From a virus: a stretch of 64,000 bases of DNA. Below the pieces are notes generated by a model. That model had not been told where the DNA came from. It saw nothing but the letters and a program-made list of their open reading frames with translations, and did no database searches. The first letter of the stretch is position 1, and each line of letters opens with the position of its first letter. Of the stretch, positions 24,662 to 25,135 are shown piece after piece. The position numbers and the translations under genes are program-made. The DNA is taken from IMG/VR virus record IMGVR_UViG_3300019458_000001; one strand, given 5' to 3'.

Positions 24662-24732
24662 GGCCGGGTGGTGTATAGCCGCACGGGCGGGAAACTGTCA
24701 GGAGCTCGGGTCGCGCCGGGCCCCGGCCACCA
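24662..24732 (+). ncRNA. tRNA-like RNA A (ends ACCA; no canonical anticodon arm)
   Basis: Acceptor GGCCGGG/CCCGGCC, then A and CCA. D arm GTGT..GCAC. T-arm-like 6-bp stem GCTCGG/CCGGGC with a 6-nt loop GTCGCG. Confidence 0.45.
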
Positions 24733-24735
24733 AAC

Positions 24736-24807
24736 GGGGAGGTAGTGTACTGCGCACTCGGCGGATCTCCGCCGGAGAGTCTGGGTCGCGCCAGGCCCTC
24801 CCCACCA
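24736..24807 (+). ncRNA. tRNA-like RNA B (ends ACCA; 6-nt loops)
   Basis: Acceptor GGGGAGG/CCTCCCC, then A and CCA. D arm GTGT..GCAC. Middle hairpin CGGCG-GATCTC-CGCCG. T-arm-like GTCTGG/CCAGGC with loop GTCGCG, showing compensatory changes relative to A. Confidence 0.45.
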
Positions 24808-24814
24808 CTTTCAT

Positions 24815-24961
24815 GGCTCGCGGAGAAGAGCCGGGCACCATTACGAGTGTTGCCGTCGGGCTTCGGGTTGCTCCGAAGACTGGCGCGGCGGGAGGGGGAG
24901 ATAATCACGCCCTCGCTCGCTAAACGGTTCGGGAGGAGTGAGCCTCCCCCGCGAGCCTCCA
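24815..24961 (+). ncRNA. long tRNA-like/structured RNA C (ends TCCA)
   Basis: 9-bp terminal helix GGCTCGCGG/CCGCGAGCC. 6-bp + 6-nt T-arm-like hairpin GGGAGG-AGTGAG-CCTCCC. Internal CTTCGG..CCGAAG hairpin. Encoded CCA. Confidence 0.35.
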
Positions 24962-25041
24962 GGGCATGTAGCTCAGAGAAAAAGCGACGCCGGTCCCGGG
25001 ACCGGCGGAGGTCGGAGGTTCAAGTCCTTCCATGCCCGCCA
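24962..25041 (+). ncRNA. tRNA-like RNA D (canonical acceptor, T arm and CCA; anticodon arm replaced by a 20-nt perfect palindrome)
   Basis: GGGCATG/CATGCCC, then G and CCA. TAGCTCAG start of the D arm. T arm GGAGG-TTCAAGT-CCTTC. The anticodon position holds CGCCGGTCCCGGGACCGGCG (24988-25007), so no 7-nt loop is possible. Confidence 0.5.
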
Positions 25042-25042
25042 T

Positions 25043-25135
25043 CCCGCGGAAGTTCATAGGAGGAACGCCGTGGACCGTGCCTCGCAAGAGGCCAGGGCTG
25101 CGGAAGTCAAGGTTCGAGTCCTTGCCGCGGGACCA
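25043..25135 (+). ncRNA. tRNA-like RNA E (canonical acceptor, D and T arms and CCA; anticodon and variable arms replaced by a long GNRA-capped hairpin)
   Basis: CCCGCGG/CCGCGGG, then A and CCA. D arm GTTC-ATAGGAG-GAAC. T arm CAAGG-TTCGAGT-CCTTG. 25068-25103 folds into an imperfect ~16-bp hairpin capped by GCAA (25084-25087). Confidence 0.5.

Follow-up and report, generated by a model that had tools for sequence, protein, structure and literature searches.

The phage record IMGVR_UViG_3300019458_000001 of the IMG/VR database was analysed over a stretch of 64,000 nucleotides (nt), referred to below as the window. At positions 24662–25135 it carries a head-to-tail array of five tRNA-like elements, here designated A to E. 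Upstream of the array lie an amber-suppressor tRNA, a promoter-like motif, an open reading frame (ORF) with the predicted fold of peptidyl-tRNA hydrolase 2 (Pth2), and a second small frame, ORF92 (Table 1). The array elements are conserved, non-decoding RNA structures which keep the acceptor end of a tRNA and a framework compatible with the tRNA L shape, with the exception of element C, which is unverified by conservation. They do not form a single class: A and B constitute one discrete new family, D and E are derivatives of tRNA, and C is an orphan.

Table 1. Features of the window, with the pairing and arms of the array elements (bp, base pairs; aa, amino acids)
Feature	Position	Strand	Terminal helix and 3′ end	Arms or remarks
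Amber-suppressor tRNA, anticodon CUA	23902–23975	+		Called by ARAGORN and by the Rfam tRNA model
Promoter-like motif TTGACA-N17-TAGTCT	23986–24014	+		Between suppressor tRNA and Pth2-like ORF
Divergent ORF with predicted Pth2 fold	24035–24391	+		Strong Shine-Dalgarno sequence; ATG GCC GAC ACG TAG
ORF92	24378–24656	+		Small basic 92-aa protein; element A starts 5 nt after its stop
Element A	24662–24732	+	GGCCGGG/CCCGGCC, then ACCA	D arm GUGU-AUAGCC-GCAC; stem GGCGG-GAAA-CUGUC; 6-bp T stem, GUCGCG loop
Element B	24736–24807	+	GGGGAGG/CCTCCCC, then ACCA	D arm GUGU-ACUGC-GCAC; stem CGGCGG-AUCU-CCGCCG; 6-bp T stem, GUCGCG loop
Element C	24815–24961	+	9-bp GGCTCGCGG/CCGCGAGCC, then TCCA abutting the 5′ end of D	147 nt
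Element D	24962–25041	+	GGGCATG/CATGCCC, then GCCA	D loop AGAGAAAAA, without G18G19; canonical T arm; 8-bp palindromic stem capped CCGG
Element E	25043–25135	+	CCCGCGG/CCGCGGG, then ACCA	Canonical D arm (GG) and T arm; 36-nt imperfect hairpin capped GCAA at the anticodon position
Downstream ORF	25156–25575			
Fused RNA polymerase ORF, 2,067 aa	32081–38281	-		Rpb2 domains 3 and 6, Rpb1 domains 1, 2 and 5; DFDGD motif
908-aa ORF	38281–41004	-		
TAG-terminated ORF (example)	3297–6122			
TAG-terminated ORF (example)	14354–18055			
TAG-terminated ORF (example)	18802–19140			
TAG-terminated ORF (example)	30972–31541			
TAG-terminated ORF (example)	52359–54560			
TAG-terminated ORF (example)	57256–58125			

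A sequence-only reading of the window had delimited the five segments by their terminal helices and NCCA ends, all of which were confirmed at the same positions. Each element is closed by a perfect terminal helix (7 bp, or 9 bp in element C) followed by one base and an encoded CCA, and the successive spacers are 3, 7, 0, and 1 nt long. A purpose-written scanner, which looks for a perfect 7-bp helix with an adjacent 5–6 bp hairpin and NCCA, recovered A, B, D, and E; outside the array it picked up three weak and unrelated candidates in the 64 kb. All five elements give a cloverleaf-like minimum-free-energy structure, with z-scores against shuffles of −0.9, −2.6, −3.7, −2.0, and −2.8 for A to E, respectively. 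Since these folding energies only modestly beat those of shuffles, the case rests on conservation, and the decisive support is the conservation and covariation observed in about 15 other phage contigs.

The same reading held that the elements lack decoding loops, and an anticodon arm missed by eye was not revealed by ARAGORN, by Rfam at E ≤ 10, or by the minimum-free-energy folds: a 7-nt anticodon loop with U33 and an anticodon at positions 34–36 is present in none of the five. ARAGORN reported only the upstream suppressor tRNA and element D, the latter as ‘tRNA-???’ with a 4-base ‘anticodon’ ccgg. With the Rfam tRNA model (RF00005), the suppressor scored 53 bits and D 43.2 bits, at a gathering threshold of 29 bits, whereas element E was not reported by RF00005 at E ≤ 10 and showed only a partial match of its 3′ half to the mascRNA family (19.1 bits, E 0.87). 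Elements A, B, and C matched no Rfam family even at E ≤ 10. Neither the transfer-messenger RNA (tmRNA) mode of ARAGORN nor Rfam found a tmRNA in the window, and a G3:U70 pair occurs in none of the five elements. At the anticodon position, A has a 5-bp stem capped by GAAA, B a 6-bp stem capped by AUCU, D an 8-bp stem capped by CCGG within the 20-nt palindrome at 24988–25007, and E its long hairpin capped by GCAA (25084–25087). The palindrome and the GCAA tetraloop had been described before, but the regular 5–6 bp tetraloop-capped stems of A and B had been overlooked. Element C has no anticodon-position stem-loop of the tRNA kind. Because the anticodon loop is replaced by a closed, capped helix, none of these RNAs can read a codon. 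Across the relatives described below, about 80% of the caps are GNRA, the loop is almost always GNRA or UNCG, and no triplet is conserved. As the earlier reading had also stated, E has both a canonical T loop (UUCRANY on a 5-bp arm) and the D-loop G18G19, D has the canonical T arm only, and A, B, and C carry a T-like hairpin of 6 bp with a 6-nt loop instead. A and B also have no D-loop GG.

Relatives were collected from soil and rhizosphere metagenomes by four routes, and their loci are denoted by L numbers. The first used homologues of the Pth2-like protein (L001, L028–L045), the second an RNA-only DNA pattern in metagenome contigs (L080/L082/L113/L119, L103, L108, L117), the third a homologue of ORF92 (L153, the closest relative), and the fourth a protein-profile scan of IMG/VR (L142–L152). 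A further set with distant Pth2-like homologues was collected by RNA motif only (L046, L057, L059, L064, L071). A single metagenome scan by the second route gave 42 matches, of which 8 were true; the true spacing in the gapped pattern of the A/B family is 23–25. Of 26 matches to the T-arm DNA pattern in IMG/VR, only the L001 contig was genuine, the others being chance occurrences in GC-rich coding sequence. The whole module found no match by blastn among 50,697 GenBank phage records, where a capped D-type query matched only ordinary tRNAs. No published description of these elements was found in a literature search that included the literal RNA motifs.

The family to which A and B belong, here termed B-type, is defined by a 7-bp acceptor, a D arm GUGU-N3–6-GCAC, a 5–6 bp stem with a tetraloop, a 4-nt variable region, a 6-bp T stem with a GUCGCG loop, NCCA, and a score of at least 70 bits with R1, a covariance model built from 13 B-type sequences. 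R1 gives 26 matches at 70–95 bits in the window and its relatives, and the next best match scores 38 bits; this gap makes the B-type a discrete family. Element A (70.6 bits, E ~1e-12) and element B (81.5 bits) are members, and C, D, and E fall outside. Among the 16 distinct B-type sequences, the T loop GUCGCG is invariant (16/16), the D arm follows GUGU-N-GC(G)CAC, and the caps comprise 11 GNRA, 4 UNCG-type, and the single AUCU of element B. In the same alignment, 98.6% of cells are paired and 14 of 23 pairs show compensatory changes on both sides, including five of the six pairs of the anticodon-position helix. None of 500 shuffles attained any of the observed measures, and slid controls were 42–50% paired. 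A direct example is the orthologue of A at L001 6458–6528, in which the stem GGCGG-GAAA-CUGUC becomes GACGG-GCAA-CCGUC, a compensatory change.

Elements D and E are of a different nature. R2, a covariance model of D/E-type elements, scores D at 72 bits and E at 45 bits, and it also matches all ordinary tRNAs on a score continuum, so that D and E are tRNA derivatives and not a separate family. Folding of 17 D/E-type elements from the Pth2-linked clade gave a tetraloop-capped stem of 7–10 bp in 16, with the caps GCAA, GAAA, GCGA, and, once, the CCGG of D (14/16 GNRA); the orthologues of D are capped by GCAA, GAAA, or GCGA. The one exception, L035 4407–4484, has a 7-nt loop, UUAAAAC. In 16 distinct D/E-type sequences, 98.2% of cells are paired, and compensatory changes occur in 13 of 24 pairs overall and in 7 of the 8 pairs of the capped helix. 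The orthologue of E at L153 3443–3555 has a nearly identical body, but its arm tip has 20 extra nt and a UUCG cap in place of GCAA, indicating selection on the helix but not on its length or cap sequence. Taken over both types, every helix is under selection, the capped one included, whereas cap sequence and arm length are free. The conservation that the sequence-only reading had anticipated was thus found for A, B, D, and E, in the form of covariation, and not for C, for which no relative was found. Its suggestion of anticodon-less tRNA mimics stands insofar as these are non-decoding, conserved structures rather than pseudogenes, but not as a description of one family.

The D arm of element D, UAGCUCAGAGAAAGAGCG, occurs in 34 IMG/VR contigs, mostly within large phage tRNA clusters, where the arm at the anticodon position is hypervariable, with UUCG, GCAA, GGAA, and GUAA caps, triloops, internal loops, and long insertions. 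In 185,579 species genomes the motif was found 11 times, about 4 of them tRNA-like and located in tRNA arrays of contigs from metagenome-assembled genomes. The AGAGAAA D arm of D and E is also found in phage tRNAs that look normal (Val-UAC, Pro-UGG, sup-CUA). It was considered as a marker of the anticodon-less class and rejected; since normal-looking tRNAs and a genuine suppressor carry it too, AGAGAAA marks a lineage and not a class.

ARAGORN either misses the capped elements, reports them as ‘tRNA-???’, or forces an anticodon on them: GCAA caps are read as ‘tRNA-Ala(cgc)’ in L080/L082/L119 (e.g., L082 4164–4242 and 4336–4413), and a UUCG cap as ‘tRNA-Arg(tcg)’ (L059 1689–1768). A separate irregular tRNA with a 9-nt anticodon loop containing a conserved GUAAUGA is found at L057 8950–9028(−), L059 1534–1611(+), and L064 1082–1160(−). 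ARAGORN labels it ‘tRNA-Ile(aat)’, and it always adjoins a capped D-type element and a distant Pth2-like gene.

Element C folds into its terminal helix, a three-hairpin core, and the T-like hairpin GGGAGG-AGUGAG-CCUCCC, and none of 200 shuffles was as stable (z = −3.7). A search with its T-like-arm pattern gave only chance matches, and it is missing from L153; its status therefore depends on its fold alone. Large tRNA-like elements occur at the same place elsewhere (127–132 nt in L103/L108, 114 nt in L043), but they cannot be aligned with C. In L103 (~12356–12482) and L108 (~2802–2933), such an element lies between B-type and D-type elements, its 7-bp acceptor covaries (GGCCCUG/CGGGGCC vs. GGCCUCA/UGAGGCC), and it has a canonical T arm, NCCA, and a body of four GAAA-type hairpins.

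The elements recur directly after the Pth2-like gene, usually as a pair or as alternating pairs separated by 1–3 nt; spacers between paired elements in relatives again fall within 0–3 nt. Arrays comprise 2–5 elements from at least two unrelated families, with a recurrent order of B-type followed by D/E-type. The B-type loci that were collected by RNA pattern only (the L082 group, L103, L108, and L117) all have a Pth2-like gene which ends less than about 40 nt upstream. Distant Pth2-like homologues (hmmsearch E 1e-11 to 1e-17) likewise lie immediately beside a suppressor tRNA or tRNA-likes that are irregular or capped. In L059 the order is Pth2-like gene, tRNA with the 9-nt loop, UUCG-capped D-type element, and UUCG-capped E-type element, and in L071 (2891–3764), an unrelated IMG/VR phage, a suppressor tRNA(CUA) with the AGAGAAA D arm is followed by a Pth2-like ORF (2986–3438) and a tmRNA (3449–3764). 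In L142, which was ascertained by its protein (49% identity), the amber-carrying gene is accompanied by a suppressor tRNA, a homologue of ORF92, and a capped tRNA-like, though their order differs. As a clue to function, this strict adjacency to the Pth2-like gene is the strongest, and not tRNA-directed defence in general, which the sequence-only reading had put forward.

That reading had also placed the array beside a suppressor tRNA and a Pth2-like gene, which was borne out. PF01981 matches 14 of 20 homologues of the protein (best E 2e-5), and a sequence profile search of the PDB returned a peptidyl-tRNA hydrolase match at E 2.7e-4. An AlphaFold2 (AF2) model of the ORF has a predicted local distance difference test score (pLDDT) of 90.9, and its top 13 Foldseek matches all belong to the Pth2/Bit1 family, with template modelling (TM) scores of ~0.7 to archaeal Pth2 and human Bit1. 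Five of these matches (2zv3, 1q7s, 1wn2, 3erj, 1xty) have probability 1.0 and TM ~0.7, and the 13 include 2gax/Atu0240, which has a PTH2-like fold without an assigned function. The model thus predicts that ORF 24035–24391 has the PTH2 alpha/beta fold. In the alignment, the Asp of the D-x-G region is matched, and the Lys of the GK motif, which we take to be catalytic in archaeal Pth2, is replaced by His or Gln. The family as a whole comprises 3,401 clusters at E ≤ 1e-3.

The Pth2-like ORF begins with a characteristic pattern, a strong Shine-Dalgarno sequence followed by ATG-(0–3 codons)-ACN-TAG, in which the amber falls at codons 3–6. In the window it is codon 5 (TAG 24047–24049), with no alternative start after it. 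The amber is conserved in 10 of 11 loci plus L142 and L153 (12/13 distinct relatives; window, L001, L028, L029, L033, L035, L038, L041, L042, L043, L142, L153), always with a suppressor tRNA nearby; more generally, a suppressor tRNA lies near the Pth2-like gene in nearly all relatives. The amber codon looks like a translational gate that would make the putative hydrolase dependent on the phage's own suppressor. In L142 a second copy of the leader, ATG AGA GAC ACG TAG (M-R-D-T-amber; 1841–1855), stands right after the Pth2-like stop; it may be left over from a duplication of the gate, or be a mini-ORF of its own. The suppressor tRNA of the window has no encoded CCA (3′ flank GGGGGC-A-TTACG, 23973–23982), whereas its orthologues in L001, L028, L033, and L153 encode CCA, as do all five array elements.

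The promoter-like motif is found at the same place in L028 (~3932–3960), L033 (~3889–3920), and L038, and in L153 (~2600–2640) as TTGAAA-N17-TAGTCT. Its −10-like TAGTCT is unusual yet conserved across relatives, and a generic sigma-70 scan did not flag the motif. We infer that TTGACA-N17-TAGTCT drives the two ORFs and the tRNA-like array. ORF92 travels with the module in six phages (window, L001, L029, L043, L142, L153). Its AF2 model (pLDDT 76) consists of two long helices forming an antiparallel helical hairpin, and no Pfam or PHROG match and no significant fold match was obtained; coiled-coil matches to SerRS and FemX were non-significant and were not used.

The wider window has a G+C content of 62.5% and contains phage genes for RusA, a phosphoesterase, a helicase, a primase, and a fused beta/beta′ RNA polymerase, so that, judged by its domains and motif, the phage encodes a fused multisubunit-type RNA polymerase. 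The adjoining 908-aa ORF matches an intein-splicing domain weakly (E 5e-4, below the Pfam cut-off), and its residues ~98–369 look like an insertion. The ORF downstream of the array has no relatives in IMG/VR. Genome-wide recoding of TAG was considered and is unsupported in the 64-kb window: the coding signal breaks off at TAG in at least six ORFs supported by G+C content at third codon positions (examples in Table 1), and the remaining ORFs end at TGA (42) or TAA (10). As TAG is mostly a normal stop in the window, the suppressor context is that of a local module and not of genome-wide recoding here.

Given the strict linkage to the Pth2-like gene, we propose with moderate confidence that the array RNAs act in trans, as translation-inert mimics of the tRNA body and acceptor end within a module formed with the suppressor tRNA and the Pth2-like gene. 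A transcript starting from the TTGACA-N17-TAGTCT motif would carry the array together with ORF92 and the amber-gated Pth2-like gene, RNase P would cut each 5′ end, and the 0–7 nt spacers would be trimmed back to the encoded CCA; where the spacer is 0–3 nt, a cut at one 5′ end would nearly make the mature 3′ end of the neighbour. The products might be direct ligands of the Pth2-like hydrolase, imitating its product or substrate and so regulating, buffering, or targeting it, or they might be harmless competitors for another factor which binds the acceptor end or the elbow and body of tRNA. Without an anticodon loop, the phage could flood the cell with tRNA-shaped RNA while causing no miscoding and offering no target to anticodon nucleases.

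Several points weigh against this proposal. First, everything past structure and linkage is what we infer from sequence, and the linkage itself could reflect only an operon of translation-related genes. Second, the Pth2-like gene occurs without tRNA-likes in L029–31, L036, and 7 of 11 more distant loci, as judged from the fetched flanks, showing that the enzyme does not require them. Third, the protein may not be a hydrolase, because the presumed catalytic Lys aligns to His or Gln, and a substrate-type decoy is in any case a poor inhibitor of a catalytic enzyme unless binding is very tight. Fourth, the fold of A is no stabler than shuffles (z = −0.94), and C, having no relative, is unverified by conservation.

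The main alternative is that the elements act in cis, as RNase P processing or 3′-end modules of the Pth2-like/ORF92 message which set its 3′ end and half-life, or as a terminator or stabiliser structure, with the excised RNAs being by-products, comparable to MALAT1-mascRNA and to tRNA punctuation in mitochondria. The placement suits such a role: the first element begins 5–8 nt past the upstream stop in the window, L001, L028, L033, L035, L038, L042, L103, and L153, and in L041 it even overlaps the upstream ORF. In most relatives the array also ends the transcription unit, with a T-rich tract and another promoter-like motif downstream, and in the window the ribosome-binding site of the next ORF comes directly after E. 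However, punctuation needs one tRNA-like, whereas the arrays carry two to five from unrelated families in a recurrent order. RNase P recognition needs mainly the acceptor/T stack; it has no need of an encoded NCCA, of the invariant T-loop and D-arm sequences seen in the B-type, or of covariation in the capped arm. We consider a cis-acting role rather unlikely, while giving it real weight.

A second alternative, which we regard as less probable again, keeps the trans action of the RNAs but makes it independent of the Pth2-like protein. The elements would be sponges for host anti-phage effectors that attack the acceptor end or body of tRNA, candidates being the CCA-pyrophosphorylating toxSAS/CapRel, the MenT/AbiEii nucleotidyltransferases, HepT, GNAT acetyltransferases, and acceptor-stem nucleases. 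A sponge of this kind would be expected to keep the acceptor/CCA end and L shape while losing both the miscoding risk and the usual target of anticodon nucleases, and to present several acceptor-stem sequences in parallel if it imitates different host tRNAs, as the arrays do. Pth reverses TacT-type acetylation, and a Pth-type enzyme in the same module would suit a counter-measure against tRNA damage. Yet no defence gene or known anti-defence gene is linked to the array, and substrate decoys titrate catalytic toxins inefficiently.

A more far-reaching version of the link with the Pth2-like protein is that the tRNA-likes and the protein are the two parts of a release or rescue factor that works independently of codons. 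The capped RNA would supply a tRNA-shaped body that docks in the ribosomal A site without codon reading, and the protein, at the acceptor/CCA end, would hydrolyse the P-site peptidyl-tRNA; the system would be switched on through the amber codon, only while the phage's own suppressor tRNA is active. This would be an RNA–protein analogue of a class-I release factor or of tmRNA-SmpB/ArfB, and we hold it to be improbable. In a sibling version, which is possible, the RNAs would be a type-III-like RNA antidote restraining a toxic hydrolase.

It is at least as doubtful that the elements are non-ribosomal aminoacyl carriers, charged regardless of anticodon and recycled by the Pth2-like enzyme. The encoded CCA and the discriminator are conserved, a hydrolase-like gene is linked, and the 13-bp (7+6) acceptor-plus-T stack of the B-type would disfavour EF-Tu, by analogy with tRNA-Sec. 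On the other hand, A, B, D, and E have no G3:U70, G-1, or long variable arm, so none of the known identity sets that work without the anticodon (Ala, His, Ser, Leu) is present, and no synthetase or transferase gene is present among the Pfam-scanned neighbours. Finally, decaying tRNA pseudogenes or odd decoding tRNAs, such as D as a quadruplet decoder with an 8-nt loop, might be suspected from the 8-nt ‘ccgg’ loop and the ‘tRNA-Ala(cgc)’ labels forced by ARAGORN, the score continuum of D and E with real tRNAs, and the 7-nt loop in L035, but they are essentially excluded by covariation: compensatory changes keep all helices, the closed cap is kept across lineages despite differing cap sequences, no triplet or quadruplet is conserved, the 8-bp palindrome of D and the GNRA caps are far stabler closed than open, and A and B score nothing against the tRNA model.

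Trans-acting tRNA mimicry within the Pth2-like module, the reading we prefer, can be set beside several known systems. The nearest in layout are the species 1/2 RNAs of phage T4 (rnaC, rnaD), which also stand head-to-tail at the end of a phage tRNA cluster. The 139-nt rnaC combines a canonical T arm with a body of several hairpins that stands where the D and anticodon arms would be, much as in element C and the large L103/L108 elements. This resemblance is architectural only, as rnaC and rnaD give no R1 match even with filters off. As annotated, they have no encoded CCA end, in contrast to the five elements, and they lack a tetraloop-capped anticodon stem, a linked Pth2-like gene, and a suppressor tRNA. 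To our knowledge, their function has still not been established. Canonical tRNA (RF00005) shares acceptor, D arm, T arm, and CCA with D and E, and D passes the Rfam threshold, whereas the 7-nt loop, U33, and triplet are absent from all five elements, and A, B, and C fail the model.

The MALAT1 mascRNA/MEN-beta RNAs and the vtRNAs (TMERs) of murid herpesvirus 68 are cloverleaf-like, non-decoding RNAs which are excised by RNase P and RNase Z, receive or carry CCA, and are encoded immediately 3′ of another transcript. The match of the acceptor/T half of E to mascRNA (RF01684) lies far from the gathering score (19.1 vs. 42.5 bits) and does not imply homology; moreover, these systems are eukaryotic or herpesviral, whereas here we find multi-family arrays with a linked hydrolase-like gene. 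The tRNA-like domain of tmRNA is an anticodon-less mimic with a dedicated protein partner on the ribosome, SmpB. Unlike tmRNA, the present elements have no G3:U70, mRNA module, or pseudoknots, and they retain and cap the anticodon-arm helix. Irregular tRNA polycistrons and allo-tRNAs of soil Acidobacteria have been reported from soil and peat metagenomes and metatranscriptomes, and some of these irregular tRNAs are chargeable yet unused in translation, for which a regulatory role has been proposed (Mukai et al. 2017, PMC5389517). In contrast to the array, these RNAs keep anticodon loops, have 8/4 or 9/3 acceptor/T arms, and are associated with toxin–antitoxin genes, and no capped anticodon stem, GUCGCG T loop, or Pth2-like linkage is described for them (PMC5389517). 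Thus mascRNA/vtRNAs, tmRNA, and the Acidobacteria polycistrons share only single traits with the array.

The elements are a previously undescribed variant of non-decoding tRNA-like RNA, comprising the new A/B family and the capped tRNA derivatives D and E, with C unverified by conservation. The presence of tRNA genes in phages is commonly attributed to codon supply or to evasion of anticodon nucleases. In the array the opposite is seen, in that the tRNA body and CCA end are kept while the anticodon loop is closed, repeatedly and on at least two unrelated scaffolds, and the products are kept beside a gene with a predicted Pth2 fold whose translation appears to be controlled by an amber codon and the suppressor tRNA next to it. 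Standard annotation misses such genes or mislabels them as tRNA-Ala(CGC), tRNA-Arg(TCG), or ‘tRNA-???’; phage tRNA censuses and codon-usage arguments are therefore contaminated by non-decoding RNAs that are either missed or labelled tRNA. The short capped scaffolds are also natural counterparts of the engineered ‘tRNA scaffold’ used for stable RNA expression. If the elements do act in trans, they would be the first defined bacteriophage family of tRNA mimics with a non-decoding job, and would offer a handle on the old puzzle of the orphan stable RNAs of T4.

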